The position numbers were made by a program, and so were the translations under genes. 64,000 nt of DNA from Pseudomonadota bacterium. GTDB taxonomy: Bacteria > Desulfobacterota > Desulfobulbia > Desulfobulbales > SURF-16. The stretch lies in contig JAHILF010000092.1 in the NCBI GenBank assembly GCA_018897105.1, positions 19,559-83,558 on the forward strand, read 5' to 3'. Positions 15,665 through 62,309 of the stretch are shown piece after piece (the stretch's first letter is position 1; every line of letters starts with the position of its first letter). The notes beneath the pieces are model-generated. The model saw nothing but the letters and a program-made list of their open reading frames with translations. It searched no databases and was not told where the DNA came from.

Positions 15665-15665
15665 A

Positions 15666-41824: not shown

Positions 41825-42555
41825 TCGGCAAAGAGAAAATTATTGCCATGATTCCGGCCCGGATCGGCAGCACCCGGCTGCCCATGAAAAATCTCGCCTT
41901 GATCGACGGTGCGCCGATGATTTCCTACGCCATCATGGCAGCAAAAAAATCTGGGGTGTTTGACCGGATCGTCATTAATGGTGATGATCCGCTGTTCAAC
42001 AGGATCGCTGAACGTTACGGGGTGGAGTTTTATCTGCGTCCCAAAGAGCTTGGCAGTTCAACAACGAAATCAGATTTTGTGGTGCAAGATTTCATGCTGA
42101 AGCACCCTGCGGATATTCTCTGCTGGGTAAACCCGACTTCTCCTTTGCAGACCGGCAGCGAAATCAGGGCGGTGGTGGACCATTTTATCCAGGAAAAGCT
42201 GGATACCTTGATCACGGTGAACAGGGAACAGGTCCATGCAAGTTTTCAGGGCAGGCCGATAAATTACAACCCGGATGAGGTTTTTGCCCAGACCCAGGAC
42301 CTGATGCCGGTGGATGTCTTTGTTTATTCGGTGATGGCCTGGAGAAACAAGGCCTTTCTCGCGGAATTCAATAAAAAAGGGCAGGCTTTTTTTGTCGGAA
42401 AGTTTGGGGTGTACCCGGTCTCCAAGATGTCCGGCATCATCATCAAGCGCAAAGAGGACCTGAAATTGGTGGAAAGTATTGTAAAGTCATTGAAAGACAG
42501 TGGTTCGGACACTCTTTGCTATGATCCCCTGGCTGAGGAGCGGGCACATGGCTGA
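41821..42555 (+). CDS. acylneuraminate (CMP-nonulosonate/CMP-sugar) cytidylyltransferase-family protein
   Basis: IAMIPARIGSTRLPMKNLALIDGAPMISYAIMAAKKSGVFDRIVINGDD, the CTP_transf_3 N-terminal signature. ATGA overlap with the upstream stop. Confidence 0.8.
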   Translation: MIGKEKIIAMIPARIGSTRLPMKNLALIDGAPMISYAIMAAKKSGVFDRIVINGDDPLFNRIAERYGVEFYLRPKELGSSTTKSDFVVQDFMLKHPADILCWVNPTSPLQTGSEIRAVVDHFIQEKLDTLITVNREQVHASFQGRPINYNPDEVFAQTQDLMPVDVFVYSVMAWRNKAFLAEFNKKGQAFFVGKFGVYPVSKMSGIIIKRKEDLKLVESIVKSLKDSGSDTLCYDPLAEERAHG

Positions 42556-43756: not shown

Positions 43757-43758
43757 AT

Positions 43759-45105: not shown

Positions 45106-45168
45106 GGGTGTTAATTCAGGTATTACATCTGAAAGAACCGGTACTCTTGTGCCGCTGGAGCAGAGCCG

Positions 45169-46656: not shown

Positions 46657-46809
46657 TGACGTGATATTTTCTTTTTAGCCGCAATGCAGTAATCGGGCAA
46701 AAGAGCAGTTTCTCAAGGTTCCCATTAAATCAATGAGTTCCGGAGCCAGAGACTGGTGAAATCGTAACTGCTACGAGTTCGCTAATAATTCTTGAGTAAG
46801 GAGAGTGTG

Positions 46810-47526
46810 ATGAATGGTAGGTTTCAGTTAGGTCCGGGCAGGGGTTTACAGGTCAACATATCCCAGGAAGAAATTATCAATATATTTCATTCCATCTTTT
46901 ACGCCAGCGAGAATGACCACAGCGGCCCGCCAAAACTCTATAACGGTGTGCCTATTCATAAACATCCCGGTGATATGTTTAATTACCAGCAGATTCTCTT
47001 TGATCAGAAGCCCGACTATATCATAGAGTGCGGCGCCTTTCAGGGAGGCTCCACCATGTTTTTTGCCGATACCCTCAGTCTTATCGGAAAAGGGAAAATT
47101 GTTTCCGTTGATATCTGCGAGCGGGAAGAACGCTGGTACCCGCAGGTTGAAGCCCATGAACGGACAATTCTGATTCCTGGCAGTTCCGTGGCGGCCGACG
47201 TTGTGGCAAAGGTCAAGGAAACGGTGAAAGACGGGGAGTCATTTTTTGTCATACTCGATTCCCTGCACACCAAGGCCCATGTTCTGGCAGAGATGGAGAG
47301 TTATGGCCCCCTGCTGGCCAAGGGAAATTATATGATCGTGGAAGACAGTAATTTGAATGGTCATCCCTTGCCTCCTGAATGGCATACCCAGACCATGCAG
47401 GAAGGTGGTCCTTTTGAGGCGGTGCTGGAGTATATGAGCACTCATCATGATTTCGTCGTTGACCTGCAGATGGAACACCGTTTTCTGTTCTCCTATGCCC
47501 CGTCAGGGTATCTGGTGAAAATATAA
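46810..47526 (+). CDS. CmcI / cephalosporin-hydroxylase-family methyltransferase (sugar O-methyltransferase type)
   Basis: YNGVPIHKHPGDMFNYQQILFDQKPDYIIECGAFQGGSTMFFAD..KIVSVDI. ATG 46810 lies 7 nt after AAGGAG. Confidence 0.75.
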   Translation: MNGRFQLGPGRGLQVNISQEEIINIFHSIFYASENDHSGPPKLYNGVPIHKHPGDMFNYQQILFDQKPDYIIECGAFQGGSTMFFADTLSLIGKGKIVSVDICEREERWYPQVEAHERTILIPGSSVAADVVAKVKETVKDGESFFVILDSLHTKAHVLAEMESYGPLLAKGNYMIVEDSNLNGHPLPPEWHTQTMQEGGPFEAVLEYMSTHHDFVVDLQMEHRFLFSYAPSGYLVKI

Positions 47527-47551
47527 ATTCTTTTGTCTGTCAAGGAGAGTG

Positions 47552-49168
47552 ATGATGCAGAGTGCGCCCGTGTTAATGCTGATTGTTGCAACCTCTTTCG
47601 GGGAGGTTGACTGGATCCTTCCGGTGCTCGCTGCATATAAGAAGAAAAACCCGCAATGGCAGATAATGACCCTGTTCGGCCATGAGGAGATTTTTGAGAG
47701 CTTGGTTCACAATAGGGCAATATATGAAGAGTTTGCCGCAATTTCTTCCCTGAACATTGTTCCCCGGGAAATCGATCTCTTTCTCTCCAGGAATATTTCA
47801 CCGGATCAGGTGAAAATCATTTTAAAGGATTTTAATGAGGACGAGTATGCCCCATATAAAATATATCTGGAGTCACGCTGCCCTGATGCCCTGGTGGTGA
47901 GTTATCCGCACTCCAATTATATTTATTCAAACCGGACTACGGAAGCCCTGCAAATCGCCGCATCCCCGGATGCTTATAGCAGGCATGATATTTTTCTGCT
48001 TGGCTCCGAGCATGATATCCCATATTGGTCCAGCTACGTGGATGTCTCCAAAATTCGCACATTCGGTTATCCTGTTTTCGATGAGGGGTGGATGGGAAAA
48101 ATGCTTCACGCCCCAAGCTTTGTTGAGTCCCCGGAAATGAAGATGGCAGTTAATGCGGGCAAGGTTTTTTTTCATATTTCCCGGCATCCACATCGTACCT
48201 ATCTTGACGAGGAGGATTATTTTTACCTGATGCAGTCCCTGGTGGAAGAGGTGTTTTCCTATGACGATGCTGTGCTTCTCATAAAACCGCATCCCAGGCA
48301 GAATATTGACAGTTTTGCTGAAGTTCTGGCATCGTATGATCCTTCAAGATGGATGTTTACCGGTCTCCAGCTTACCCAGCTCTGTTCTCTGGCTGATGTC
48401 GTGGTGTCGTTTTTTTCTTCCGGCATCATAAATGCTTTGGCGGCAGGAAAGCCAGTTATTGAGTTCTATCGTTTCAATGACAAGAATCCGGACTGGCGCA
48501 GGCTGCCAAACGGCGCGACAACGTCCATCTACCGGGAACTCGGCCTTGCCGTGCCCGCAGATAGCAGACAGGAATTAGCTCTGCAGATAAAATCGGCCTT
48601 GGCGGGTACGGATTCTGTTTGGGCGTTTCAACAAAAAGCCTACACTCTCCACTGCCAAGAAAGGGAGAATGTTGCAGAAGCAATAAGTGATTGTCTCCTT
48701 AAAGAATGGGCAGCCAAAAAAGAGAGAGTTGCCAAAGGTGAAGTGAGCGATGAGGATAAACCGGCCCGGCAGCTCGGGTATATGCGGAACTTTGTGGAAA
48801 AGGGAGACTATCAAGCCGCGGAAGAACTGGTGGAATCACTCGTTGGTCGCTATCCCAACGTTGCCCTGTTCTACAATGAACTCGCTGTTTACCTCTATCA
48901 GCGGGGGGAAGTTGAACGGGCAATACGTAATTTCGCCAATTGCCTGGGTCTTGACCCTCATTTTGGGGTTGCAGCAGTGAATCTCTGTCATGCCCTTATG
49001 GAAAAAGAGAGAGATGGTGAAGCGCTGGAAGTGATTCTTTCCTTTCAGCGGACGGTTGTCGAAAAACAGGATGTTTTGGTTGAGTTGCAGAATGCACTCA
49101 AAGGGCAGCTGCCGGCGGAGATGTTTGACCGATTGCAGAAAATGCTAAACGATAACCATGCGTCATGA
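47552..49168 (+). CDS. GT-B-like putative glycosyltransferase (KPHP motif) fused to C-terminal TPR repeats
   Basis: LLIKPHPRQ..ADVVVSFFSSGIINALAAGKPVIEF resembles capsule-synthesis or sialyltransferase-type GT-B C-lobes. The C-terminus has TPR-like repeats (GDYQAAEELVE..YNELAVYLYQRGEVERAIRNFANCLGLDP). The function is tentative. Confidence 0.45.
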   Translation: MMQSAPVLMLIVATSFGEVDWILPVLAAYKKKNPQWQIMTLFGHEEIFESLVHNRAIYEEFAAISSLNIVPREIDLFLSRNISPDQVKIILKDFNEDEYAPYKIYLESRCPDALVVSYPHSNYIYSNRTTEALQIAASPDAYSRHDIFLLGSEHDIPYWSSYVDVSKIRTFGYPVFDEGWMGKMLHAPSFVESPEMKMAVNAGKVFFHISRHPHRTYLDEEDYFYLMQSLVEEVFSYDDAVLLIKPHPRQNIDSFAEVLASYDPSRWMFTGLQLTQLCSLADVVVSFFSSGIINALAAGKPVIEFYRFNDKNPDWRRLPNGATTSIYRELGLAVPADSRQELALQIKSALAGTDSVWAFQQKAYTLHCQERENVAEAISDCLLKEWAAKKERVAKGEVSDEDKPARQLGYMRNFVEKGDYQAAEELVESLVGRYPNVALFYNELAVYLYQRGEVERAIRNFANCLGLDPHFGVAAVNLCHALMEKERDGEALEVILSFQRTVVEKQDVLVELQNALKGQLPAEMFDRLQKMLNDNHAS

Positions 49169-50354
49169 TCTGCTGATAATCGGTGGAGGTATCATAGGGC
49201 TTGCCGTCTGTCAAAAGATCCTCGATTCAAGGCCGCAAACCAGGGTACTGCTTCTGGAAAAAGAAGATGATGTTGCCTGCCAGCAGACAGGTCATAACAG
49301 TGGCGTCATTCACTCCGGTATCTATTATGTGCCCGGCACTATAAAGGCCGAAACATGCCGGAGGGGCTATGGGCTGCTGGTGGACTGGTGCCGGAGGCAT
49401 CATATTGACTATGAAATATGCGGAAAAATCGTTGTCGCCACCCATGAAGCTGAACTGCCCTATTTAAATACGCTTTATGAACGAGGCCTGAAAAATGGCC
49501 TGCAGGGAATTCGGAGAATTTCAGCTGATGAGTTGCGGGAATTAGAACCGCATGTGGCAGGCATTGCCGGGCTTCATGTTCCCGAGACCGGCATTGTTGA
49601 TTATCGTCAGGTGGCCGCAAGCCTAAGGCTCGCATGCGAAAAAAACGGGGCCGTTCTGCGGTTCGGGGAAGAAGTTGTCAATGTTGTCGCAGCTAGCGAT
49701 GGCGTCAGGGTTGAGACCGCAAAAGGAGTGTACACTGCGTCCTGCGTGGTCAGTTGCTGCGGGCTGCAGTCGGATCGGATAGCCCGGTTGACCCGACCTG
49801 ATCTGCCGGTACGGATTATACCCTTCAGGGGTGAATATTATACCCTGGCTCCCGCCAAGAAATATCTGGTTCGCAATCTTATTTATCCTGTTCCTGATCC
49901 TGCCTTCCCTTTTCTTGGTGTTCATTTTACACGGTTGATCAACGGGGAAAGAGAGGCGGGCCCTAATGCCGTGCTTGCCCTAAAACGGGAAGGATACCTG
50001 AAGACCGACGTGTCGTTTGCTGATCTTTTTGAGACTCTGGCCTGGCCTGGGTTTCGAAAAATTGCCCGGAAATATTGGCGCTCCGGGCTCATGGAAATGT
50101 ACCGGTCCTTCAGTAAAAAAGCATTCCTCCATGCATTGCAGAAGCTTGTTCCCGAGATTGAGGAGGCTGATCTGCTGCCCGGCGGATCAGGGGTAAGAGC
50201 CCAGGCCTGCTCCCGGGATGGCCGGTTGCTCGATGATTTCTACTTTGTGGAGGATGATCGAGTGCTCCATGTCTGCAATGCCCCTTCGCCGGCAGCAACC
50301 GCCTCACTGGCCATTGGCGAGCAGGTGACGGAGAGAGTGCGGGCGAAATTTTAG
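49158..50354 (+). CDS. lhgO: L-2-hydroxyglutarate oxidase/dehydrogenase (FAD-dependent)
   Basis: DLLIIGGGIIGLAV..LLEKE..CQQTGHNSGVIHSGIYYVPGTIKAETC closely parallels the N-terminal region of E. coli LhgO (YgaF). 398 aa. Confidence 0.75.
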   Translation: MRHDLLIIGGGIIGLAVCQKILDSRPQTRVLLLEKEDDVACQQTGHNSGVIHSGIYYVPGTIKAETCRRGYGLLVDWCRRHHIDYEICGKIVVATHEAELPYLNTLYERGLKNGLQGIRRISADELRELEPHVAGIAGLHVPETGIVDYRQVAASLRLACEKNGAVLRFGEEVVNVVAASDGVRVETAKGVYTASCVVSCCGLQSDRIARLTRPDLPVRIIPFRGEYYTLAPAKKYLVRNLIYPVPDPAFPFLGVHFTRLINGEREAGPNAVLALKREGYLKTDVSFADLFETLAWPGFRKIARKYWRSGLMEMYRSFSKKAFLHALQKLVPEIEEADLLPGGSGVRAQACSRDGRLLDDFYFVEDDRVLHVCNAPSPAATASLAIGEQVTERVRAKF

Positions 50355-50403
50355 CAATGGGTATAACACATGCCGGAAACTGAGGCGTCCTGGAGGGTAG
50401 TTG

Positions 50404-51600
50404 TCACCCTTCTTCGATGAGACGCGGACCGATGGAAAACTGATAGATGCCCCAGATCCCCGTGGGAGCGGCTTGCGGGGCCATTGTCAGGAAGCCGAAA
50501 TAGTCATAGCCATAGTCTCCCGATGTTCCCGCCAGAACCGATTCCAGGGGGGCTGTGCCGGATAATCTATACCAGTATTGCTCTTCCGGCCGCAAAATCA
50601 TATTGATGGTACCGCTTTCCCGGATGTTTTCCACTCGAAAAACCCATCTGGTGCCGCTTTGGGCGTGTTCGACAAAAAAATGGATGGTTCCGTTTTGAAG
50701 ATCCAGGTTTTTGACATATTGTCGGACATAAAGGAAGCTGTTGCGAAGATCCTCGCCCAGTGTCGATTGCGAGGCGTGGACAAAACCAAGATAGGCAAAG
50801 GAGGGAGCGGAGTCTGTTATGGGTAGGAAATCATCAGTGTTGTAGGCAAGATGAATTGTTTGATTTTCGATCATTTCAACCCGGTCCTGAATTGTTTCAC
50901 TGTGCATGGGTATTTGACGACCCTGCCGACGGCTGACAGTCAGCCATCTGTTGGCGGACTTGCTGAAGTCGGCATTGTAAGGCCAGTTTGTTTTGATGTC
51001 GGCCTCTATGGTAAATTCGCTTAAGGATAATCTCCCGGTCACTTTTTCGGAAAATCCGAGAAAAGAAAAACCAAAACTTGAACAGGCTTTCAGGGTCATG
51101 GGCAGACTCCTGGCATGCAAGGGGTCGGAGATGAAGCTGCAGTGCCATGACGCCGGGTTCATATCCATGCAAAGACGAAGGGGTTTATCCCAGGTTCCAT
51201 CGCTTATAGCCAGGGGATACCGATTATAATGCCAGCGGGTTGAGCCAAGGGTCGAGGTGTGGACCCAGAAAAAACATTTTCCCCCCTTCAGGTCAAGCCC
51301 GTCTCCGCGCAGGTGGAATTCCACCATGGCGTTTCTGAGATCATACGGAGGTTCCAATACCCAGAAGGGGTAGTAAATCAAGGCTAAAATGGAGTGGGGG
51401 GATTCCGGGGTGTCAATGCTCCACATGGTGTCATCCGCCCAGATATAGGGTTTCCCGTCAGCCCCCCCCTGTTCATCAAAATGGACTTGATGGAATTTAT
51501 CATCCGGGCCGATGTATTCATAACTGCCCCAGGATAAGAGGTTTGTCGTTATTTTCATGTCGGAGGGATTTCCTTGTTGATGGGGGAGGCCCTCTCCCAC
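50404..51600 (-). CDS. hypothetical protein with an internally duplicated domain; no family recognised
   Basis: An uninterrupted 398-codon ORF lying 8 nt downstream of the HisF-like gene. The two halves share patterns (FHLRGDGLDLKGGKCFFWVHTS..TRW vs YVKNLDLQNGTIHFFVEHAQSGTRW). The start is either GTG 51600 or ATG 51558. It contains a G8 tract (51462-51469). Confidence 0.55.
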   Translation of the reverse strand: MGEGLPHQQGNPSDMKITTNLLSWGSYEYIGPDDKFHQVHFDEQGGADGKPYIWADDTMWSIDTPESPHSILALIYYPFWVLEPPYDLRNAMVEFHLRGDGLDLKGGKCFFWVHTSTLGSTRWHYNRYPLAISDGTWDKPLRLCMDMNPASWHCSFISDPLHARSLPMTLKACSSFGFSFLGFSEKVTGRLSLSEFTIEADIKTNWPYNADFSKSANRWLTVSRRQGRQIPMHSETIQDRVEMIENQTIHLAYNTDDFLPITDSAPSFAYLGFVHASQSTLGEDLRNSFLYVRQYVKNLDLQNGTIHFFVEHAQSGTRWVFRVENIRESGTINMILRPEEQYWYRLSGTAPLESVLAGTSGDYGYDYFGFLTMAPQAAPTGIWGIYQFSIGPRLIEEG

Positions 51601-51607
51601 CCGGAGG

Positions 51608-52366
51608 TTAGAGGCGTACAGGGATGTTTTTCCCCCGCAGGTAGTGTTTCATCTCCAGAGGGGTCTGTTCGGTGAAATGAAAAATGCTTGCCGCGGCCAC
51701 CGCGCTTGCCTTTCCCTGATGAATGGCGAGATACATGTCTTCCGCATTTCCCGCGCCCCCGGAGGCGATAACCGGGATGGAGACGCTTTTGCTCACCTGG
51801 CGGAGGCAGTCCGGCTCATATCCCTGCATGGTCCCGTCCCGGTCGATGGAGGTGAGAAGGATTTCGCCGGCCCCCATTTCTTCGGCCTGCTGCGCAAAAG
51901 TAACCGGCGACAGGCCGGTGGCCCTGGTTCCTGAGTGGGTAAAAATTTCATGGACGCCATTTGCATGGGTTTTGTAATCAATGGAAACGACCGCACACTG
52001 GGAACCGAACCGATTGGCAATGTCCTTGATGAGCTGCGGATTGAGGACCGCGCCTGTATTGATTGCCACCTTGTCCGCTCCCATCATGAGCAGCTGCCGG
52101 ACGTGGTCAATGGTTTGTATGCCGCCGCCTACCGTAAGCGGCATGAAGCAGTCGTCCGCCAGATCGTCGACCACCTCGAAGTCCGGATCGCGTTGTTCCC
52201 CTGTGGCCGTAATGTCCAAAAATATCAGTTCGTCAACCTCCCTCATGCTGTATACCATGATTGTCTGCAGGGCACTGCCCACCCGTCGCCAGCTGTCGAA
52301 GGATATCCCCTTGACCAGACCGAAGTTTTTGTAGAGGAGAGTTGGGATAATGCGTACTTTTAACAT
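51608..52366 (-). CDS. HisF-like cyclase subunit (WbuZ-type; glycan acetamidino module, not histidine biosynthesis)
   Basis: MLKVRIIPTLLYKNFGLVKG..DELIFLDITAT..GGGI..ASGGAG. The start is taken as ATG 52366; the track extension to 52513 overlaps the HisH-like gene. Confidence 0.8.
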   Translation of the reverse strand: MLKVRIIPTLLYKNFGLVKGISFDSWRRVGSALQTIMVYSMREVDELIFLDITATGEQRDPDFEVVDDLADDCFMPLTVGGGIQTIDHVRQLLMMGADKVAINTGAVLNPQLIKDIANRFGSQCAVVSIDYKTHANGVHEIFTHSGTRATGLSPVTFAQQAEEMGAGEILLTSIDRDGTMQGYEPDCLRQVSKSVSIPVIASGGAGNAEDMYLAIHQGKASAVAAASIFHFTEQTPLEMKHYLRGKNIPVRL

Positions 52367-52980
52367 AGCGAGATAAAATTGGTCAGAATTCTGGCGCCGG
52401 ACTTGAGGCTTTTTTCCGGATGGAATTGCACCCCGAAGCAGACGTCTTTGCCGACAACAGAGATGAATCCCCCGCAGTATGGGGTCTGAGCAAGGACATA
52501 CTGTGGATCGCACTGGAAATGATAGCTGTGGACAAAGTAGAAATCCAGGCGGTCTTCCACTTCGTGAAAAAGCGGAGAAGTCGAAACCCGGTTGACCTCG
52601 TTCCAGCCCACATGGGGAATCCGTTCCTCTGCAATAACAGGTTCAAGGTGTCTGATCGTCCCCGGGATCAGATCGAGACCACTGGTTTTTCCGCCTTCAT
52701 AGCCGATTGTGGCCATGAGTTGCATACCTAAACAGATGCCCAGAAAAGGAGTGCCGTGTGTTTGTATCCTGTATTTGATGGTCTGTATCAGGTCGTCACG
52801 GGAGGTCAACTCCTTCATGGCGTCGGCAAATGATCCTACGCCGGGTAAAATGATACCATCCGCTTGGGCCACCTCGTGGGCGATATCCGTGATAAGCGGC
52901 GCGGCCCCTAATTTTTCAACGGCCCGGGCAACGGAGTCAATGTTGCACATCCCATAATCAATGATTGCTATTTTTTTCAT
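52360..52980 (-). CDS. HisH-like glutamine amidotransferase subunit (WbuY-type)
   Basis: KIAIIDYGMCNIDSVARA..ILPGVGSF..GICLGMQLM (catalytic Cys)..VQFHPEKS. Confidence 0.85.
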   Translation of the reverse strand: MKKIAIIDYGMCNIDSVARAVEKLGAAPLITDIAHEVAQADGIILPGVGSFADAMKELTSRDDLIQTIKYRIQTHGTPFLGICLGMQLMATIGYEGGKTSGLDLIPGTIRHLEPVIAEERIPHVGWNEVNRVSTSPLFHEVEDRLDFYFVHSYHFQCDPQYVLAQTPYCGGFISVVGKDVCFGVQFHPEKSLKSGARILTNFISLC

Positions 52981-54128
52981 GGGTTGTCGTAATTGATTTT
53001 TGTCAGATTGCCATGCCTGTCTTTTACCAGACGTCCCTTGGCGTCGCGGACAAACAGTTTTTTATTGGTAAATCGATCGCAGATTGTCACGAATTCATCT
53101 ACCGTCATATCAATCTCTTCAAGAATATCTTCCAGCGGCCGGCCAAGATAGGTCCAGGGGAATTTCCCGTCGTGGCGCCTGACCAGTTCCAGGGCGTCAG
53201 CCCGCTGCATGCGGCCTCGCCGGATATGCAGACAGGCGATGTCTGTTGCCCGGCCAAAACCATATTTAAGAAATTTGAAGTAATCGTGGATCCCGGTGTG
53301 ATAATTGTCAAGATTCTCGTAGTTTGCCAGGGAGCCTTCCACAAAACTCGGAAAGGTCTCAAACCCGTATCCCTGGGAGATGACCGAATTATGGTAGCCA
53401 TCCCAGGGCAGGTAGTATCCGAGAAATAGACCGGTCACCCCGACTCTCTGCAGCTCTGCGTCGCTGGGATAGGTAAACTGGACCAGATGCCGTTTTTCAA
53501 TGCCCTCCTGACCCACCAGATCGGATACCCGCAATCCGAGCAGGCCTCCGAACTCTTCAAGCCAGCGGCGGGACAGGGTGTTGTTGTCCGCGTCGGCAGC
53601 AGGCCCGCCGTATTCGTTTTGTGAATTTTCTCCCCAGATGAGAAGGGGGATATTGAGCTGAACGGCGATGCGGACTGGAATAGTGAAAATCGTCACGTGT
53701 TCCGGCCAGGAGATATCGCCCAGGGTAGTGAGGCATAACCGGTTGATTTTATGGCGGACGACCCTGTTGGTTGTCACTTCGAGATAATCAACCCCCAGTT
53801 TTTTTATGTTGTCGATATTACGCCGGCCGATATCGGACAGGGAACAGGTGGTGCTGGTGACACAGAGTGGATTCATGCCTAATTTCAGCATCCGCACGGT
53901 CTGATAGGTGCTGTCCTTGCCGCCGCTGACCGGAATGACACAGTCATAGTTGCTGCCCGCTGTATTGCGGTATTTTGCCAGTATGTCATCAAGCTCTTTT
54001 TTGCGGACGGCCCAATCGATTTTCTTTCGGCGTTGGAAATAATTACAGGCGCTGCAAACGCCCTGTTCGTCAATTTCCAGATCCGGTTTGGTTTCCGGCA
54101 TGAGGCATTTGTTGCAGTAGGTAATCAT
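52977..54128 (-). CDS. N-acetyl sugar amidotransferase (PP-loop ATPase; WbuX/WbpG/LfnA/PseA family)
   Basis: N-terminal zinc-ribbon CNKC..CSAC and the PP-loop VIPVSGGKDSTYQ. 383 aa. Confidence 0.85.
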   Translation of the reverse strand: MITYCNKCLMPETKPDLEIDEQGVCSACNYFQRRKKIDWAVRKKELDDILAKYRNTAGSNYDCVIPVSGGKDSTYQTVRMLKLGMNPLCVTSTTCSLSDIGRRNIDNIKKLGVDYLEVTTNRVVRHKINRLCLTTLGDISWPEHVTIFTIPVRIAVQLNIPLLIWGENSQNEYGGPAADADNNTLSRRWLEEFGGLLGLRVSDLVGQEGIEKRHLVQFTYPSDAELQRVGVTGLFLGYYLPWDGYHNSVISQGYGFETFPSFVEGSLANYENLDNYHTGIHDYFKFLKYGFGRATDIACLHIRRGRMQRADALELVRRHDGKFPWTYLGRPLEDILEEIDMTVDEFVTICDRFTNKKLFVRDAKGRLVKDRHGNLTKINYDNP

Positions 54129-54208
54129 GCATATTTCTCCGGTTAGATATCCGTACCTTGTTTGGCGCTGTAAAAAGAACCTGGATCGGTCAATTGAGGC
54201 AGGGATCT

Positions 54209-56698
54209 TTATCTGTCGTTTCGGTTTGTTGCCGCTAAACTCAAATCATTTCTGAATTGCTTGAGAGAATTGCTGATTTCGGCAAACACAGCGGCCCAGT
54301 CCCCTGGTCTTGATTGGCGGAATATGGTCATTGAGGGATACCAGGGGCTCTCGCGTCCATCAAGCAGCCACCTCCAGTCCGGGATATAGGGTAATAAAAG
54401 CCAGACAGGTTTATTCATTGCCCCGGCAAGATGTGCAACGGATGTGTCCACTGTTATGATGAGATCCAGGTGGTGCATCAGGGCCGCGGTATCTGAAAAA
54501 GATGAAAGATGTTCTTTCAGGTCATTGATTTCCGGAAATGAGGTAAGCTCGGGCGCATCTTTCTGCAGGCTGAAAAGCTGCACATCGGGTACACGAATCA
54601 GCGATTCGAAGTGCTCCAGACGACATGACCGGTTATGGTCATTCTTGTGCTTTGGATTGCCGCGCCAGACAATGCCGATTTTTATTTTCCCGACTGAAGC
54701 GGCAAACTCATTGAGATACTGGTGCGCCAGCTTGCTGTCGGCGGCAATATAGGGGACTTTATCGGGAATGCTGTCGCGGGTTGTCCGGAATATTGTCGGC
54801 AGATCAAGCAGGGGAATATGGTAATCGACCTCTGCCATCATCGCGGCCGGCAGGTCCTTGCCGATGACGGCATCTATTTCCGGAAGCGTCCTGAAGAGAT
54901 CCAGGAGTGCTCTTTCACAGCAAACAAAAATTCTGTTGACTCGTTCTTTGAGTAGAGGGATGTATCTGATAAATTGAATCGAATCGCCATAGCCCTGCTC
55001 CGTGTGGACTAATACTGTTTTGTCCGGACAGAAATCTCCCTGCCATCGGGGCTTGTTGATAGGCAGAATAATGACTTTTTTTCTTTTCCATCGCCAGAGA
55101 TAGAGGTCAAAACCTTCCGGGTAGTCACCTGTCAGCAGCAGTTGATGGCTGAGGTTCCAGTTGGCCTCGACGTGATCGGGATTTATGGCAATGGCATGGC
55201 GAAGATGTTCAATGGCTTTGCCGGTGTCTTTCAGTTTGGAATAACAGGTGCCGAGATTGTACCAGGCATCGGCAAAGTCCGGATCATGGGAAGTGGCCAG
55301 TTCATAGGCAGCGATTGCCTCATTGAAGGATTCCTGCTTCAGATAAATATTGCCCAGATTGCAATACGCCTTGCTGAAAGCCGGTTGCAGAGTGAGTATC
55401 TGTTGAAAGGTGGCAATGGCTGCGTCAATGTCATCATTTTCTTCCAGGCTGAGTCCGAGGTTGTTAAGCGTATCCACATTGTCAGGGGAGAGAGTCAGTG
55501 ATTGGTGGAAGGCCTCTATCGCTTTGGGGTAATTTTTCACCTTATGATAGGCGATTCCCAGATTGTAATAGGTTTGCGCTGAGCCTGGCTTTAAGGTGAG
55601 CACCTGCTCGTAGGCCTGTATGCTTTCGGCAAAGCGGTCTTGAAACTGGATAGTCAAAGCCAGATTCTCCAGGACACTGCTGTCTTCGGGGTGCAACTGC
55701 AAAGCTTGCCTGAAAATTATTTCCGCCTCGGCATAACGCTGCAATGTTTTATAGGTGACCCCCAGGTTGTTCAGGGCCTCCGGATAGTCTGGTTTCAGGA
55801 CGAGAGCGGTTTCAAATTCCCCGACGGCGGACTCAAGTTGTCCCAAGCTGTGCAGGGCATTGCCAAGATTGTACCTGGCCTCCGGGAGATTGGGGGCTCT
55901 TTCCAAGGCCTTTCTGAAATAAGAAATGGCTTCATTTTTCCGGTCATCTTCCGATAATAATAAACCAAGGTTGTTGAGAGCGCAGACGTTATCGGGCTGC
56001 AGGGTAAGTGCCGTCTGAAAGCAGGTTTCCGCGTGAGCTGAGTTGCCGCCTGCCTGGAGCAGCAGACCTGCCTTGACGATAGGGATCACCGCCAGCGGGT
56101 CTGCTGTATTGGCTTTGAGGAAAATATCCAATGCTTCTTGGGACCTGCCTTGGGATTGAAGGATTGTCCCAAGCTGATCCAGCACATAGGAATCTTCAGG
56201 CTGCAGCGAGAGGGCTTTCCGGTACATTTCTTCCGCTTCGCCAAGCATGTTGCGTGACACATAAATCCGTCCCAGGTTGCGAAGGGCTTCCTGGTAATCG
56301 GGGCGCAATGCGATCGTCTTGAGGAAATATTCCAGGCCCTCCTCCACTCGTCCTTGCAATACCTCAATATTGCCGAGGTTGAAATAGGTTTCCGCCGAAT
56401 CCGGAGAGAGTTGCATGGCAGAGAGGAAAGTTGCCGCTGCTTCATCGAGCCTCTTGAGTTGCAGGAGAATAAAACCCAGATTGTGCAGGGCCTTGAAATT
56501 GTCAGGCTGCAGCGAGGCGGCTTTTTTGAAAAAGGGGTATGCTTCGCTGTTTCTTCCCTGATGGTGCAGGGTCAGACCGAGAATCCCAAGGATCTCCGGG
56601 GCTTCAGGGTTCTGTTCCAGAATCCGGCGGCAGGTTTGTTCCGCTTCCTGCAGTTTACCCTGGTGGAGGAGATCAATGGCTGTCTGAGTATGCGGCAT
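54209..56698 (-). CDS. TPR-repeat (about 15 repeats by eye) protein with a C-terminal GT9-like glycosyltransferase domain; the architecture resembles the flagellin glycosyltransferase FlmG
   Basis: Repeated A..NLG..Y...G....A...Y..AL.L.P units span about 520 aa. They are followed by HTEQGYGDSIQFIRYIPLL and ITVDTSVAHLAGAMNKPVWLLLP (GT9-type). Confidence 0.7.
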   Translation of the reverse strand: MPHTQTAIDLLHQGKLQEAEQTCRRILEQNPEAPEILGILGLTLHHQGRNSEAYPFFKKAASLQPDNFKALHNLGFILLQLKRLDEAAATFLSAMQLSPDSAETYFNLGNIEVLQGRVEEGLEYFLKTIALRPDYQEALRNLGRIYVSRNMLGEAEEMYRKALSLQPEDSYVLDQLGTILQSQGRSQEALDIFLKANTADPLAVIPIVKAGLLLQAGGNSAHAETCFQTALTLQPDNVCALNNLGLLLSEDDRKNEAISYFRKALERAPNLPEARYNLGNALHSLGQLESAVGEFETALVLKPDYPEALNNLGVTYKTLQRYAEAEIIFRQALQLHPEDSSVLENLALTIQFQDRFAESIQAYEQVLTLKPGSAQTYYNLGIAYHKVKNYPKAIEAFHQSLTLSPDNVDTLNNLGLSLEENDDIDAAIATFQQILTLQPAFSKAYCNLGNIYLKQESFNEAIAAYELATSHDPDFADAWYNLGTCYSKLKDTGKAIEHLRHAIAINPDHVEANWNLSHQLLLTGDYPEGFDLYLWRWKRKKVIILPINKPRWQGDFCPDKTVLVHTEQGYGDSIQFIRYIPLLKERVNRIFVCCERALLDLFRTLPEIDAVIGKDLPAAMMAEVDYHIPLLDLPTIFRTTRDSIPDKVPYIAADSKLAHQYLNEFAASVGKIKIGIVWRGNPKHKNDHNRSCRLEHFESLIRVPDVQLFSLQKDAPELTSFPEINDLKEHLSSFSDTAALMHHLDLIITVDTSVAHLAGAMNKPVWLLLPYIPDWRWLLDGRESPWYPSMTIFRQSRPGDWAAVFAEISNSLKQFRNDLSLAATNRNDR

Positions 56699-56832
56699 TG
56701 TAGTGATGTGCGGCTGTTAATGGATGATATTGTAGCAAAATGCAGGAAAAGTATGTCATTTCTATCAGTAATGATAAGATCAGAAAAAAACATGGTTTGC
56801 AAGTAACTTTGAAGATTTTTATGGGTGATTGA

Positions 56833-59712
56833 ATGAAAAACTACTGGCAGGCAAATATGGATTTGCTCAAACAATATGAACCGGAACTCCATGAGCGGTT
56901 AACAGATATCCACTTTGAATCTGTCGGCGACTTTTTTCAGACACCGACCGGCGACGTCTCTCTTCGCTATCACGGAGCCAATAACCAGCTTTTCGCCTAT
57001 GGCAATGATCCTTGGCAGGATTGTGCCTGCCATCTGCAAACAGTGGAGAAGGGCGCCACCGGACTGGTTGTCTTTGTGGGCATGGGGTTGGGGTATGGGC
57101 CTTTAACTCTGCTCCGGGAACGTCAGGAAGTAGGGCGGATCATCATTCTTGAACCGTCCACGGACCTGTTTTTTGCTGCCATGTCCGTCCTTGATTTGAG
57201 GCCGCTCATCATTTCAAAACAGGTTTTGTTTCAGGTGGGCGCTGTTGACTTTGAGAAATTTGAACTGGATGCATATCGTCTGGCGTCCATTGACGATTCC
57301 CATGTTCTGCGTCATGCCCCATCTTTTCAATGGCGGCCTGATCTGTATGCAACATTAAATGAGCAGGCATATATGATTTTGAACAAGATCAATGCCAGCG
57401 GCGGGACCACGAGGCGGTGGGGGCCGACTTTCTTTAAGAATCGCCTGACATATCTGAAACGCCTGCGTTTTCTCAATGAAATCGACTTGCTGCACGGGGC
57501 ATTCAAGGGGATGCCGGCCATGCTGGTCGCCGCAGGTCCATCCTTGACCCAGAGTCTGGAGGAATTGAAGAAAGTTAAGAATCATTGTGTTATCATTGCT
57601 GCTGATTCCGCCTTGGCCCCCCTTCTGGAGGCAGGAGTCATTCCTGATTTTGTCACCTCCATTGATTTTCTGGATTTGAATATCGAGAAACTGGCACCCT
57701 ATCTCTCCGGGGAATGGGATTTTTCCTTGGTGTCCATGGTGAAAATGGCGCCGATCGTCAATCAGACGTTTCCCGCCCGCCATATTTTTGCCGCCTTTCC
57801 CGAGGATCGTTCCCATGATTGGGTCATCCAGGCTCTTGGCGTGAAAAGATATGTGGCCACGGCATCATCGGTTGCTCACCTTTCTCTTGGGCTTGCTCTT
57901 ATTCTTGAGGCGGAACCTGTCTTTTTGGTCGGCCAGGATTTAAGTTTTACCTCGGAAGTGGAGGACCATGCCAAGGGTACCATCATTATGAAGACGGGGA
58001 CCGAGCCGGAGCATGAGATTTTTTATGTGAAAAGCATCAATGGCGGCAAGGTAAAAACCGACCGTCAGTTGATGTCTCTTCAGAGTATTTTTGAGGATAT
58101 TTTTGCGAAAGCTCCCGGGCAATTTATTAACGTTTCTGCTGCCGGTGCGCATATCCAGGGAACCAGAGTAATGCCGCTTGCAGCGGCACGGCAGGAGTTT
58201 ATGGGGGATGAACTGCCGGTTGCCGTTTCGGATGTTGTTGACCGCTGTGTCGCTAAGAGTATTCCCTTCCCGGTTGAAAATTTCTGCCGCACCTGTGAAA
58301 AGAATATAACGCTTGCCAAGAAGTTGACCGGTAAGCTGAACTCTTCTCTGACCATGTCTCAGGAACTTGTAGCACGCTTGAAGGTTATCGGTAAAGAAGG
58401 CCATGCCATCAATGCAATGGGCGATTTGCCTGATTCATTGGTGAGAAAGCTGCATAAGATCGATACCGTCAATTGTGAAGTTGACAAAGAACAGGAGTTC
58501 TGGCAGCAGGTGCTGGAGTTGACCTATAACTCCTTGAGTGAAAATGACGTGAGGAACGCTCGGAATACAAAATTAAAGGAACAAGGCCCTTATTTGCGCT
58601 GGTTGTCGGCGGAGCTGGACCGTATTGATCTGGTAAACCGTGAGCGGCTGCAGGCGCTGATGACGTATCAGGCAGAGGTGGGAGCTCTGGTCGGTTTTTT
58701 GAAACAGGAGAAAGTTTTGCTTGCCCGGTATGAAAAGAAGAAATCGTTGCAGGCTACTCTGGATTTGGCACGATTCTATACGGATAATCATGCCTATCAG
58801 CAGGCAAAGGCAATTGTTCGCTCCAGTCCAGCTGAATTTCATGGGCAAAGTGCCGAGCTCAATGTGCTGACTGGTAACACCTGGGCGGCATTACTGGATT
58901 ATGAACAGGCGGGACAGTTCTGGCAACAGGCTGTCACCATTGCCGAAGCAAGTCAACAGGCAATTTCTCAATTCTGCCGTGAGCAGATTACTCTCTGGCT
59001 CGGGTTTGTAGAGAGATATGGAAATGCCGGAGAGAAAGGGGACAATTTCCCTCATCTGTTACCGGTCTGGCTCGGAAGAATTTTTCAACTGGTTGAGCAG
59101 GATGGAAATCTTCCTGCTGAGGTCAGGGTAATGTGGGAAAACCATTTTGGCCGTATTCGCACATGGCTTGATGAAGGAGATGTGGACGCGGCCAGGATTA
59201 CCTTTACCGGCTGGCGGCTATTTCGGAACTGGATTGCTGAAATAGACTTCTGCCGGGCATTATTGCTGTCAGGGGAAGGAGAAAGTGAAGCGGCACGGCA
59301 ATGCATGGAAGAACTGAATGCCCGCAAGCCGGGAAATGGTGAGTGGCTTGCCTTTCAGGCCCGTTTAACATTGGAGCAGGGAAACTTTGATCAGGGGATC
59401 AGTCTCCTGCAAAAGGCTGTTGCTCTCGACCCCCTGCAGGCGAAGCTGTGGGGGGAATTAGGTGATGTCCTGGTCGCGGACGGCGATCTGGAGAGCGCGG
59501 TATTGGCCTATGAACGATGCTTTCTTGCCTTGCCGCATTATCTGGTCGCTTTGAATAAAATAGGCGATTGTTACCTGCTGGCAAAGCAACCTCAGCCGGC
59601 CATGGCCGCCTATGATGCGGTATTAGAGAAAGATCCGGCTGATACCTGGGCAAGAGATGGGAAACGCAAGGCTGACAAGATGGGGCAAAAAAATTCCGGC
59701 AGAAAAGATTAA
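56833..59712 (+). CDS. maf: motility accessory factor (Maf; DUF115/MptE-like domain) with a long C-terminal helical/TPR region
   Basis: MPAMLVAAGPSLTQSLEELKKVKNHCVIIAADSALAPLLEAGVIPDFVTSID is the Maf/DUF115 core. C-terminal TPR-like repeats (KLWGELGDVLVADGDLESAVLAYERCFLALP..). It lies directly upstream of the flagellin gene. Confidence 0.8.
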   Translation: MKNYWQANMDLLKQYEPELHERLTDIHFESVGDFFQTPTGDVSLRYHGANNQLFAYGNDPWQDCACHLQTVEKGATGLVVFVGMGLGYGPLTLLRERQEVGRIIILEPSTDLFFAAMSVLDLRPLIISKQVLFQVGAVDFEKFELDAYRLASIDDSHVLRHAPSFQWRPDLYATLNEQAYMILNKINASGGTTRRWGPTFFKNRLTYLKRLRFLNEIDLLHGAFKGMPAMLVAAGPSLTQSLEELKKVKNHCVIIAADSALAPLLEAGVIPDFVTSIDFLDLNIEKLAPYLSGEWDFSLVSMVKMAPIVNQTFPARHIFAAFPEDRSHDWVIQALGVKRYVATASSVAHLSLGLALILEAEPVFLVGQDLSFTSEVEDHAKGTIIMKTGTEPEHEIFYVKSINGGKVKTDRQLMSLQSIFEDIFAKAPGQFINVSAAGAHIQGTRVMPLAAARQEFMGDELPVAVSDVVDRCVAKSIPFPVENFCRTCEKNITLAKKLTGKLNSSLTMSQELVARLKVIGKEGHAINAMGDLPDSLVRKLHKIDTVNCEVDKEQEFWQQVLELTYNSLSENDVRNARNTKLKEQGPYLRWLSAELDRIDLVNRERLQALMTYQAEVGALVGFLKQEKVLLARYEKKKSLQATLDLARFYTDNHAYQQAKAIVRSSPAEFHGQSAELNVLTGNTWAALLDYEQAGQFWQQAVTIAEASQQAISQFCREQITLWLGFVERYGNAGEKGDNFPHLLPVWLGRIFQLVEQDGNLPAEVRVMWENHFGRIRTWLDEGDVDAARITFTGWRLFRNWIAEIDFCRALLLSGEGESEAARQCMEELNARKPGNGEWLAFQARLTLEQGNFDQGISLLQKAVALDPLQAKLWGELGDVLVADGDLESAVLAYERCFLALPHYLVALNKIGDCYLLAKQPQPAMAAYDAVLEKDPADTWARDGKRKADKMGQKNSGRKD

Positions 59713-59736
59713 AGTTGCCGGCAGCATTATCCGATA
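59709..59736 (+). promoter_or_regulatory. candidate sigma28 (FliA) promoter of the flagellin gene
   Basis: TAAAGTTG-N12-TCCGATAC versus the consensus TAAAGTTT-N11-GCCGATAA. The spacer is one nt longer than consensus. The motif overlaps the maf stop codon. Confidence 0.45.
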
Positions 59737-59894: not shown

Positions 59895-62309
59895 ATGGCA
59901 TTACGAATTAATACAAATGTGGCTGCTCTGTCAGCTCACAAAAACATGATCAAGAACGATAATTCTCTCTCGGCCTCATTGGAGAAATTATCCTCCGGTC
60001 TGCGGATCAACAAGGCGGCTGACGATGCCTCCGGTATGGCAATTGCCGACTCGTTGAGGTCCCAGGGCCTTGGTCTCGGTCAGGCTGTCAGGAATGCCAA
60101 TGATGGTATTTCCATGGTACAGACAGCTGACGGTGCTTTGGAAGAGTCCATCAATATCGTTAATACTATTAAGACCAAATCCATCCAGGCAGCCCAGGAT
60201 GGGCAAACCATCGATTCCCGTAAGGCGATTCAGGCTGACATCAATAAACTGATGCAGGAGCTCGATGTCATTGCCAAAACGACTTCGTTTAATGGGCAAA
60301 AGCTGCTTTCCGGGGCTTTTACCGATAAGAAGTTCCAGGTTGGCGCCTACTCCGGTGAGACGGTCGGTGTTTCGATCGGTTCTTCAGAGTCAACCAAAAC
60401 CGGCCATCTGAGCACTGCAATACTGAAATCTGATGCGGTAAATGGCGGTGAAGTCCGCATGACCATTCAGAGCAGCCTGCAGGCGACCTCGGTTGCACTG
60501 CAATCCGTAACTCTGGCATATGATAATGAGGCCCAGCATGGTATAGGGGCTCTGGCTGATGCTATTAACAAGGTTGCCGCTGTTACCGGTGTAACCGCGC
60601 AGCTGGATGTTTCCGTGTCCAGCACCGGAGCTGTTGGGGCCGGCACCACCGGTTCTGACTTTGCTGTTAATGGAATAGCCATCGGTGCGGTGGAAATTTT
60701 TGCCAATGATTCCAATGGCGCTTTGGTGAATTCTATTAATCAGAAGTCGGATCAGCATGGTGTGACCGCCAGCGTTGATGCGGGCGGTGTGTTAACCCTG
60801 ACCGCAACTGACGGCCGGGCTATCCAGGTTACCGGTAGCACGAGTACGGTTCTTGCCGGCAGTAACTTAAGCACCTTTGGCCAGATCAAACTCTTCCAGA
60901 TCGGCGCCAATGAGATTAAGATAAATGATGAAGCCCAGGTAATGTCTCTGAATGTCACTGCCAATGTGACAGCGTCGGATAAAGTTACCACCAGTGTTGA
61001 TTCTGTTTTGAGCAAAGATTCAGTTATTGCATCGCTTTCGGTTCTGAAAGCCGGTACCACCCTCGGTTTTGACGCCGGGGCTGCTCAGATGATAGATGCA
61101 GATATTTCAACGACCCAGGATACCATCTTGACTGCCGGCTCGGTACTGGGATCCGGGACGACGATTGAATCAGGCTCGATTCTTGGCGGTTCAGTCTCGA
61201 ATCAGTCCGCAGTAACCACCACGGATGAGTCTGTGTTGAAAACCGGCTCCATTCTTGGCTCTACTTCAGTGCTCGCCGCTGGAACCGTTGTCACCACCCA
61301 GTTTATCGACAGTGCTGCTAATACCTACACGGCCGGCACCACGCTGTCCAGCGATGTCACGATTAGTGACGCGGTGACCTTGACAGCCGATATGAATATT
61401 GCCGCCGGTTCAGTGTTTAACGATGACGAAAACGTCTTTACTGCTGGTTCTTATATCGGTGCTGATGTTGTCGTTTCAGGTAATGCAACCATGACCCTTG
61501 GCATGACCTTGAAGGCCAACTCCATTATTGGGGGTTCTGCATCGACTATCAAGGCCGGTTCAACTCTTGGCGGCGATCTCACCACAAGCGGTGCGGATAT
61601 AACCGTTCTGGCTGATACGCAACTTAAAGCCGGTTCTGTTATAGGCAGTAACAGTGCCTTTGCCAAAGGCTCCACCATTGGCGGCAATGTCACTACCAGC
61701 GCCAATGTCACCACCTCCGGTGAGATGACCCTGGCTGCCGGTTCTCAGCTGCAAGCGGCAAGTACCATCAAGGCCGGTACCGTGCTTACCAATGATGTCT
61801 GGGTAGCTGGCGGCGATCTTCTCAAAGCCGGCACAGTCCTGCAGGGTGATGCCATTACCTCGGGTACGAATTATCTCAACAACTCCATGACCCTGAAGTC
61901 TGGATCTGTGATGGCGAGTGGCTCCGTTTTTGCGGCGGCTCAGACCGCAGCAACCGGAGCGTCTGCTACAACCAGTCTGTCTGACATTGAGAAATTCACC
62001 CTCGCTGATGTTGACGTGACCTCTCAGGAAGGCGCCCAGGTGGCAATCAGTATCGCTGACTCTGCCTTGAAGAATCTTGATAAGATCAGGTCCGATCTCG
62101 GTTCCGTACAGAATCAGCTGACCTCTACCATTGCCAATATCTCGGTAACCCGCGTTAATATCTTTGCCGCGGAATCTTCAATCCGGGATGTTGACTTTGC
62201 CGAAGAGTCTGCAAACTTCTCAAGGATGCAGATTCTGAGTCAGGCCAGCACCTTTGCCATGGCCCAGGCCAATGCAAGCTCCCAGAACGTTCTGAGCCTG
62301 CTGCAGTAA
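59895..62309 (+). CDS. fliC: flagellin (804 aa, enlarged variable region)
   Basis: N-terminus MALRINTNVAALSAHKNM..LSSGLRINKAADDASGMAIA. C-terminus LGSVQNQL..RIRDVDFAEESANFSRMQILSQA..NVLSLLQ. Flagellin_IN-like motifs (ALVNSINQKSDQHGVTASVDAGGVLTLTATDGRAIQV). A central region of about 520 aa is rich in Ser, Thr, Gly and Ala. Confidence 0.95.
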   Translation: MALRINTNVAALSAHKNMIKNDNSLSASLEKLSSGLRINKAADDASGMAIADSLRSQGLGLGQAVRNANDGISMVQTADGALEESINIVNTIKTKSIQAAQDGQTIDSRKAIQADINKLMQELDVIAKTTSFNGQKLLSGAFTDKKFQVGAYSGETVGVSIGSSESTKTGHLSTAILKSDAVNGGEVRMTIQSSLQATSVALQSVTLAYDNEAQHGIGALADAINKVAAVTGVTAQLDVSVSSTGAVGAGTTGSDFAVNGIAIGAVEIFANDSNGALVNSINQKSDQHGVTASVDAGGVLTLTATDGRAIQVTGSTSTVLAGSNLSTFGQIKLFQIGANEIKINDEAQVMSLNVTANVTASDKVTTSVDSVLSKDSVIASLSVLKAGTTLGFDAGAAQMIDADISTTQDTILTAGSVLGSGTTIESGSILGGSVSNQSAVTTTDESVLKTGSILGSTSVLAAGTVVTTQFIDSAANTYTAGTTLSSDVTISDAVTLTADMNIAAGSVFNDDENVFTAGSYIGADVVVSGNATMTLGMTLKANSIIGGSASTIKAGSTLGGDLTTSGADITVLADTQLKAGSVIGSNSAFAKGSTIGGNVTTSANVTTSGEMTLAAGSQLQAASTIKAGTVLTNDVWVAGGDLLKAGTVLQGDAITSGTNYLNNSMTLKSGSVMASGSVFAAAQTAATGASATTSLSDIEKFTLADVDVTSQEGAQVAISIADSALKNLDKIRSDLGSVQNQLTSTIANISVTRVNIFAAESSIRDVDFAEESANFSRMQILSQASTFAMAQANASSQNVLSLLQ

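Follow-up and report, generated by a model that had tools for sequence, protein, structure and literature searches.

Three glycosyltransferase-like proteins, each fused to tetratricopeptide repeats (TPRs), are encoded just upstream of a sigma-28-type flagellin-fliD-fliS-fliT-flaG locus in positions 19,559 to 83,558 of contig JAHILF010000092.1 (assembly GCA_018897105.1). This stretch of 64,000 nucleotides (the window) belongs to the metagenome-assembled genome (MAG) of an uncultured Desulfobacterota bacterium, and we infer the functions of all three proteins, here called A, B and C. Nearly all genes of the window lie on the plus strand and encode sugar- or small-molecule-modifying enzymes. The closest relatives of the window's proteins come from Thermodesulfobacteriota, Desulfobulbaceae, Desulfobacula and Desulfobacterales MAGs. 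A preliminary description of the window had listed three open reading frames pairing TPRs with a transferase fold, namely a protein with a KPHP motif (A), a protein with about 15 TPRs and a GT9-like domain (B) and a Maf protein with C-terminal TPRs (C). Pfam, AlphaFold2 and Foldseek bear this out at the positions given in Table 1. The catalytic domains adopt transferase folds, as judged from the AlphaFold2 models and Foldseek comparisons and, for the Maf, from its match to a solved homologue. The preliminary description had named catalytic domains of some other fold as an outcome that would disprove it, and this outcome did not arise.

Table 1. Features of the transferase and flagellin region, in window coordinates (aa, amino acids; res, residues).
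Feature	Position	Strand	Details
Protein A	47552-49168	+	538 aa from ATG; GTG 3 nt upstream
Protein A, GT-B catalytic domain	res 1-398 (about 47549-48742)	+	N-terminal S-F-G-E-V-D-W-I-L-P loop; K246-P-H248-P249
Protein A, TPR region	res 404-538 (about 48758-49162)	+	8 helices, ~4 TPRs
Protein B	54209-56698	-	829 aa
Protein B, TPR region	res 1-540 (55079-56698)	-	Pfam TPR_1 in 11 stretches; ~15 34-residue units fit
Protein B, compact GT9-like GT-B domain	res 541-829 (54212-55078)	-	~290 aa
Protein C, Maf (MAF_flag10/DUF115)	56833-59712	+	959 aa
Protein C, Maf core	about 57061-57954	+	PF01973, 111 bits vs cutoff 34.6, E = 6.8e-32, res 208-374
Protein C, helical/TPR region	about 58510-59667	+	helical from ~res 560
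Sigma-28 (FliA)-like promoter	59710-59736	+	TAAAGTTG-N11-TCCGATA; upstream of flagellin, overlaps Maf stop codon
Flagellin, presumed acceptor	59895-62309	+	804 aa; Flagellin_N 1.8e-46, Flagellin_C 1.8e-27
Conserved cassette before protein A	40185-47526	+	Pfam and NCBIfam
GT2::CMP-sugar-type cytidylyltransferase fusion	43741-45105	+	PF00535 + PF02348; 60-69% identity in 16/16 cassette loci
Ldh_2 2-hydroxyacid dehydrogenase	40778-41824	+	flanks protein A cassette, conserved with cassette
FAD oxidase, L-2-hydroxyglutarate oxidase-like	49158-50354	+	NF008726, 1e-163; overlaps end of protein A
Protein D, fourth candidate transferase	37960-40164	+	734 aa; PF01075, E = 1.2e-6; GT9 signature; no TPR
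398-aa protein	50404-51600	-	no Pfam, NCBIfam or PDB sequence match
Acetamidino-forming trio: WbuX-type N-acetyl-sugar amidotransferase, HisH, WbuZ/HisF-like	51608-54128	-	TIGR03573 1.5e-98, TIGR01855 9e-64, TIGR03572 4e-88

The arrangement is conserved in related bacteria. When one genome per species was scanned, an A-like domain turned up at 25 loci, and tblastn served to compare these and further loci with the proteins of the window (L-numbers denote these loci). The gene order Ldh_2 oxidoreductase, PseF-like cytidylyltransferase, GFO/IDH/MocA oxidoreductase, GT2::cytidylyltransferase fusion, methyltransferase(s) and protein A was kept in 16 Desulfobacterota loci. In nine of the loci compared, a B-like gene encoding TPRs and a GT9-like domain lies antisense directly downstream of the A gene (L002, L004-L006, L008-L012). 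Maf-TPR proteins of 943-959 aa were found in L003, L004, L012 and L017 (943-952 aa for the orthologues of L003, L012 and L017), and a Maf-TPR protein is visible together with a flagellin in two to four loci, where the fetched flank suffices. The most compact case is L012, where all four genes (A, B, Maf and flagellin) follow one another within 9 kb, uninterrupted by any other gene. Judged from these sequence comparisons, the A-B-Maf-flagellin set is a conserved unit and more than a chance association, even with proteins that are only 40-60% identical across these species.

The flagellin starts 183 bp downstream of protein C and is followed on the contig by fliD, fliS, fliT and flaG. Its top NCBIfam models are of the FlaA/FlaB types, and no second flagellin was present in the ~90 kb inspected. 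The sigma-28-like motif upstream is the sole match in the window. As about 0.5 matches are expected there by chance, the weight of this putative promoter rests on its position. The central region of the flagellin is Ser/Thr-rich with beta-helix-like repeats. Residues ~400-690 (about 61095-61964) form an insert of ~290 aa, itself very rich in Ser/Thr and made of hexapeptide, left-handed beta-helix-like repeats of the pattern [KL]-[AT]-G-S-x-[IL]-G, matched in Pfam by Hexapep (3e-8) and LbH_EIF2B (7e-5). A separate hexapeptide-repeat protein of 569 aa adjoins the Maf of L003 (679-2388 of that locus).

Protein C is the most readily placed of the three. Besides its Maf core it carries a Maf_flag10_N domain (PF20157; 43.5 bits against a cutoff of 23.5, E = 3e-11) and a match to the PseD domain NF050051 (E = 4.4e-23, below the full-length cutoff), and it matches the solved Magnetospirillum Maf (PDB 5mu5) with E = 4.4e-7. 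TPR_19, TPR_16 and TPR_2 matches fall at residues 800-940. This sequence evidence places protein C in the Maf-1 type known from Shewanella, which is already characterised. Like Maf-1 of S. oneidensis, it has a Maf N-domain, a MAF_flag10/MptE-like core and a long C-terminal TPR region, and its gene adjoins a flagellin; unlike Maf-1, it is 959 rather than 822 aa long and comes from a Desulfobacterota MAG. Two-hybrid assays with Maf-1 show that its TPR region (residues 550-820) binds flagellin; glycosylation dependent on pseudaminic acid (Pse) needs this region, and the catalytic Asp is D247. Its companion Maf-2 is without a TPR and needs the adaptor GlfM, and the two Maf proteins modify different serines of one flagellin. 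A Maf joined to TPRs is therefore nothing unusual, and several transferases acting on a single flagellin are likewise documented by Maf-1 and Maf-2.

The first 400 residues of protein A gave no solid Pfam match. TPR_19 was found at residues 414-496 (32.7 bits against a cutoff of 25), although the TPR region as a whole is short. The AlphaFold2 model, built on a 38-sequence alignment, has a mean predicted local distance difference test (pLDDT) score of 91.7 and consists of two Rossmann-like domains (residues 1-395) followed by eight helices. Of the 345 PDB matches that Foldseek returned at E <= 1e-3, 50 were listed, each one of GT-B fold, with E values reaching 1e-11; among them, ranked below a block of epimerases, are glycosyltransferases such as HepE, MGD1 and WaaC. 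The KPHP motif occupies residues 246-249, at the start of the C-terminal Rossmann domain, and across 38 family members and 52 distant relatives there is little or no variation at K246, H248 and P249. Sub-threshold matches were recorded to the polysialyltransferase family PF07388 (E = 0.044), the BFO_1060 family NF046086 (0.011), TIGR04396 (0.0024) and Kdo transferase (0.027). The donors of these weakly matched families are all linked to cytidine monophosphate (CMP), which is released on transfer. A match to the Kdo transferase structure 2xci (E = 0.0045) was set aside as non-specific, because the SxGE loop of protein A resembles both the SxGE loop of GT30 and the SxGD loop of GT9 enzymes. Alignment with hhalign to single E. 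coli sequences was nearly uninformative (probability 6% for WaaA, 3% for WaaC).

A word-indexed search found 59 relatives of protein A, nearly all of ~540 aa and of the same layout, and every named source belongs to the Desulfobacterota. An exhaustive profile search with the catalytic domain alone against 1.84 billion representatives reached much further, to 3484 proteins at E <= 1e-3, 206 of them with E <= 1e-30, and most are stand-alone proteins of ~400-450 aa. Among 52 relatives, the glycerophosphotransferase family Glyphos_transf (PF04464, TagB/TagF) is matched by five (best 2.6e-10), polysialyltransferase PF07388 by two (3e-8) and Epimerase_2 (PF02350) by two (4.8e-8), and about 40 have no Pfam match to a known catalytic family of such kind. 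Protein A would thus be a GT-B enzyme whose closest kin are TagF/TagB-like, polysialyltransferase-like and Tannerella nonulosonate-transferase-like enzymes. Because these relatives act on sugar acceptors, protein A more likely extends a glycan than starts one on protein.

The distribution of the family separates its two parts. The TPR-fused form occurs in Desulfobacterota only and always follows the same cassette. TPR-less relatives adjoin amidotransferase trios in Solidesulfovibrio and other Desulfobacterota loci (L020-L022), and further ones come from Pelagibacter, which is non-flagellated, and from Thermoplasmata. This distribution suggests that the catalytic domain is a sugar-decorating enzyme of general use, and that fusion to TPRs is the innovation specific to flagellin. 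The TPR region diverges faster than the catalytic domain (25-36% vs 47-62% identity), and across loci the flagellin has a conserved core and a variable middle. Taken together, these two patterns fit co-evolution of the TPR region and the flagellin without proving it.

Protein A resembles two groups of enzymes described elsewhere. CD0244 of Clostridioides difficile is similar to both TagF and UDP-N-acetylglucosamine (UDP-GlcNAc) 2-epimerase, and is required to add phospho-N-methyl-threonine, from a proposed CDP-linked donor, to GlcNAc already on FliC; in FgtA (PA1091) of Pseudomonas aeruginosa, a CD0244-equivalent domain is fused to an initiating GT2 transferase. CD0244 and FgtA belong to the type A and b-type flagellin glycans and are the best functional precedent for protein A. 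Like these, protein A is a TagF/epimerase-like GT-B protein encoded in a flagellin locus beside a GT2 domain, cytidylyltransferases and methyltransferases, and the chemistry we propose by analogy, a CMP-releasing transfer onto a flagellin-bound sugar, would also be shared. Unlike there, the cytidylyltransferases here are of the CMP-Kdo/CMP-N-acetylneuraminate (PseF-like) family and not CCT-like, protein A has TPRs, and its cassette adds Ldh_2, GFO and FAD oxidase genes, which are missing from those systems. The second group comprises the polysialyltransferases and Tanf_01245, the orthologue of which in Tannerella forsythia is BFO_1060. Tanf_01245 is TagB-like with an HP motif, and is genetically required for adding Pse or legionaminic acid (Leg) derivatives to N-acetylmannosaminuronic acid. 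These enzymes share with protein A the TagB-like GT-B fold, the HP motif and the company of CMP-nonulosonate and acetamidino genes. Unlike protein A, they are without TPRs and act on lipid-linked or polysaccharide acceptors, and the matches of protein A to their families are the weak ones given above.

The cassette preceding protein A encodes a methyltransferase dependent on S-adenosylmethionine (SAM), the Ldh_2 oxidoreductase, a PseF-like cytidylyltransferase (3.5e-25), the GFO/IDH/MocA oxidoreductase, the GT2::cytidylyltransferase fusion, a B12-radical SAM protein and a CmcI-type methyltransferase. The GT2::cytidylyltransferase fusion could both activate a donor and transfer the sugar. On the other side of protein A, the FAD oxidase follows in 11 related loci. 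That the FAD oxidase and Ldh_2 are kept with the cassette hints at a donor or substituent derived from a 2-hydroxy- or 2-oxo-acid.

Protein B heads a minus-strand run that continues with WbuX, HisH, HisF and the 398-aa protein. Within its C-terminal domain, the GT9 family PF01075 scores 27.9 bits against a cutoff of 22 but covers only 32 residues (domain residues 198-229), and NCBIfam heptosyltransferase models stay far below their cutoffs. A structure model of a 323-residue C-terminal fragment has a pLDDT of 93.9 and a compact GT-B fold. Its best PDB matches in Foldseek are the GT9 enzymes 3tov, 1psw, 6dfe, 2h1h and TibC (4rb4), a set that includes WaaF and WaaC (E 1e-6 to 1e-4). When compared with nine proteins of the E. 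coli waa region (eight Waa proteins and RfaD), the B-family profile matched only the GT9 members WaaU, WaaC, WaaQ and WaaF. The family match runs through the nucleotide-binding signature D-T-S-x-x-H-L-A-x-A, which in protein B reads D-T-S-V-A-H-L-A-G-A and aligns to WaaC and WaaU.

The preliminary description had likened protein B to FlmG, the Pse/Leg flagellin transferase of Caulobacter and Brevundimonas. FlmG has 596 aa, of which residues 1-313 form a TPR domain that binds flagellin and the C-terminal 283 aa a GT-B domain (PMC7591256). Protein B has the same order, N-terminal TPRs and then a GT-B domain of ~290 aa, and lies in what would be a flagellin glycosylation locus, so that in architecture it resembles FlmG. 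In contrast to the 313-aa TPR domain of FlmG, it has about 15 TPRs in ~540 aa. FlmG is reported to be confined to Caulobacterales, which are without Maf, whereas protein B comes from outside that order, has a Maf next to it and belongs to a large, mostly non-flagellar family. Protein B is consequently described by its architecture and not called an FlmG. The GT9 heptosyltransferases, including TibC, share with proteins B and D the GT9 fold and the C-terminal D-T/S-x-x-x-H-L-A-x-A signature. They are without TPRs, unlike protein B, and the Pfam match that links them to it spans ~32 residues. TibC, of the BAHT family, illustrates that a GT9 fold is able to O-glycosylate proteins.

Searches with the C-terminal domain of protein B found no match above 49% identity, although the window's own protein was not returned either. 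As the exact sequence of protein A from this MAG was retrieved, and protein B is recorded on the contig as a called gene (with no Pfam entry), the word index apparently misses it. The catalytic-domain family comprises >2900 clusters from cyanobacteria, Planctomycetota, Desulfovibrio and DPANN-like archaea, typically as proteins of ~450 aa. Three members were inspected, and none had a flagellar setting: one lies by a type I secretion system, one by archaeal ribosomal genes and one in a Nostoc locus. The B proteins of the loci compared here are set apart from this family by their synteny and their long TPR arrays (total length 627-846 aa). The amidotransferase trio also adjoins B-like genes in five other loci (L002, L004, L006, L008 and L009), and this conserved adjacency points to an acetamidino sugar. 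Candidate donors for protein B are thus an acetamidino sugar made by its own operon, or a heptose. Heptose was also followed by synteny, and outside the window's contig heptose genes were not syntenic with B-like genes. On that contig, 10-20 kb upstream of the window start, an NDP-heptose pathway is encoded (L029, 1-8823), within the same island as protein B but some 45 kb from it. It includes an HddA-like kinase (6e-40), an HddC::GmhB-like fusion (phosphatase part 1e-40) and an HldE-like protein, together with a split transketolase, a GSU2086-family protein and an APH-like kinase.

The folds, motifs and domain fusions of proteins A, B and C, their flagellar context and their synteny suggest a common role. 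Soluble transferases build flagellin glycans in the cytoplasm, acting one after another on the protein, and TPR domains bind flagellin in FlmG and Maf-1. Our preferred reading, which we hold tentatively, is that the locus forms the centre of an island for flagellin glycosylation that Desulfobacterota share (Desulfobulbaceae, Desulfobacula and related MAGs), in which three TPR-docked cytoplasmic transferases act on one flagellin. The three proteins would dock through their TPRs on unexported flagellin in the cytoplasm. Protein C would attach a CMP-activated nonulosonic acid to flagellin Ser/Thr and so start the glycan. Protein A would use a CMP- or CDP-activated unit that its own cassette supplies, most likely adding it to a sugar which the flagellin already bears, and protein B may add a further or separate sugar. 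What we infer here is which donors and acceptors are used, in which order the proteins act and that their TPRs bind flagellin. For the docking role that the preliminary description gave to the TPRs, FlmG and Maf-1 provide experimental precedent (the description had cited FlmG for it), and in this locus the role is assigned by analogy. Its overall interpretation is partly supported: the transferase folds, the docking precedent and the synteny of the trio speak for it, but protein B cannot be called an FlmG, protein A more likely extends a glycan than starts one, and neither a Maf-TPR fusion nor several transferases on one flagellin is out of the ordinary.

Stepwise assembly may not occur at all. 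Proteins A, B and C might each start a glycan of their own on different Ser/Thr residues of the flagellin. That all three carry a TPR of their own would suit such parallel action, since a protein-recognising initiator needs one; Maf-1 and Maf-2 work in this site-specific, parallel way on one flagellin, and the GT9-like TibC glycosylates protein Ser directly. Yet the nearest characterised relatives of protein A (TagB/TagF, CD0244, Tanf_01245 and the polysialyltransferases) all use sugar acceptors, and the GT2 domain in its cassette could lay the primer sugar. We consider purely parallel initiation unlikely.

We give the same low weight to the view that protein B, and possibly protein A, are not directed at flagellin, their TPRs binding another protein or a biosynthetic complex and their proximity to the flagellin reflecting a shared donor supply. 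The breadth of the B family, which extends to non-flagellated organisms and unrelated neighbourhoods, speaks for it, as do the TPR-less relatives of protein A in Pelagibacter and Thermoplasmata. By pairwise identity the B domains of these loci did not stand apart as a clade either, being 40-53% identical among themselves and up to 49% identical to generic members, and thus no closer to each other than to the rest. Against this stand the adjacency of A and B in nine loci at only 40-50% identity, the compact A-B-Maf-flagellin block of L012, the long TPR arrays of these B proteins (627-846 aa against ~450 aa in generic members) and the finding of TPR-fused A with the cassette only.

That protein A is an epimerase-like nucleotide-sugar enzyme with a helical tail (for example a hydrolysing 2-epimerase of a nonulosonate pathway) rather than a transferase is very improbable: UDP-GlcNAc 2-epimerases fill the top 30+ places of its Foldseek list (E 1e-11, 11-15% identity, template modelling score 0.65-0.70 on target) and two of its 52 relatives match PF02350, but protein A itself has no PF02350 match at E <= 10, that identity is low, its invariant K-x-H-P motif and N-terminal SxGE loop are features of transferases and not of epimerases, CD0244 likewise resembles both kinds of enzyme although its genetic behaviour is that of a transferase, and it is not obvious what purpose fused TPRs would serve in a soluble epimerase.

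Several findings nevertheless count against a trio of flagellin-directed, TPR-docked transferases. Two were met above, the mostly non-flagellar nature of the B family, in which the B domains of these loci form no distinct group by identity, and the rank of epimerases as the best structural matches of protein A. In addition, the matches of protein A itself to transferase families are every one below significance, and a D/E-D/E-G motif of the sialyltransferase kind, D178-E179-G180, proved coincidental, as the family has D-x-W for its consensus there. The window and its readable flanks yielded no nonulosonate synthase (NeuB/PseI/LegI, PF03102). A specific TPR common to A, B and C was also sought, but the three regions are alike only in the generic repeat.

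Proteins B and C fall into described or very common types. A Maf with TPRs, the concept of a flagellin transferase made of TPRs and a GT-B domain, and the presence of multiple transferases per flagellin were all known. What is new is that three different folds, each fused to TPRs, are conserved together next to a single flagellin, as are the co-occurrence of a Maf with an enzyme of FlmG-like architecture and the uncharacterised TagF/polysialyltransferase-like TPR fusion with its dedicated cassette. A more far-reaching proposal is that protein A, guided by its TPRs and using a new CMP-activated donor from its cassette, stands for a further class of transferases directed at flagellin, the third beside the GT-A-like Maf and the GT-B enzyme FlmG. 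Three unrelated folds would then have recruited TPRs independently to assemble or diversify a complex glycan on one cytoplasmic flagellin. We regard this as possible but doubtful.

To our knowledge, the only worked examples of how cytoplasmic O-glycosyltransferases choose their targets are the FlmG TPR, the Maf-1 TPR and the GlfM adaptor. The locus offers a natural test bed for asking whether TPRs serve as interchangeable docking modules, whether each TPR selects different acceptor sites or glycan intermediates, and whether glycan-extending enzymes, besides initiating ones, need to dock on the protein. The cassette of protein A may in addition make an undescribed CMP-linked donor, and modular soluble systems such as A-B-C are attractive for engineered protein glycosylation.

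Other genes of the region encode further candidate enzymes. Glycosyltransferase-like products besides A, B and C are the GT9-like protein D, the GT2::cytidylyltransferase fusion, further GT2 proteins and a GT1-like protein. Protein D has a Cys-rich, zinc-ribbon-like stretch at residues ~450-505 and a C-terminal half without a family match, and a PDB sequence search with it found no match. It aligns to the B family in hhalign with a probability of 90%, and its gene heads the cassette in L002, L004, L006, L008 and L016. The 398-aa protein is kept at 40-44% identity beside the FAD oxidase in L002, L007, L008 and L018. In L003, PseB/LegB-like, DegT and Epimerase_2 genes lie beside A; like the PseF-like cytidylyltransferase and the amidotransferase trio of the window, they fit nonulosonate chemistry.

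Between the gene for the 398-aa protein and hisF, L002 encodes a 556-aa TPR::radical SAM/SPASM fusion (15300-16970), which recurs in L007 (~10695) and L018 (~7126). No such fusion is present in the window. These fusions in related loci raise the prospect that TPR docking may extend to glycan-tailoring enzymes.

Near the start of the window, a plus-strand open reading frame of 551 aa (3554-5209) is without a Pfam or NCBIfam match. The stretch that follows, 5915-32200, is exceptionally rich in class B radical SAM genes, with at least ten B12-binding radical SAM and four radical SAM/SPASM proteins. None of these reaches an NCBIfam cutoff, and the matches recorded are sub-threshold and to generic class B models. 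The same stretch also encodes SAM methyltransferases, two Acyl_transf_3 proteins, an LPG_synthase_TM protein, an HpnA-like epimerase (3e-60), a DegT aminotransferase and a carbamoyltransferase.

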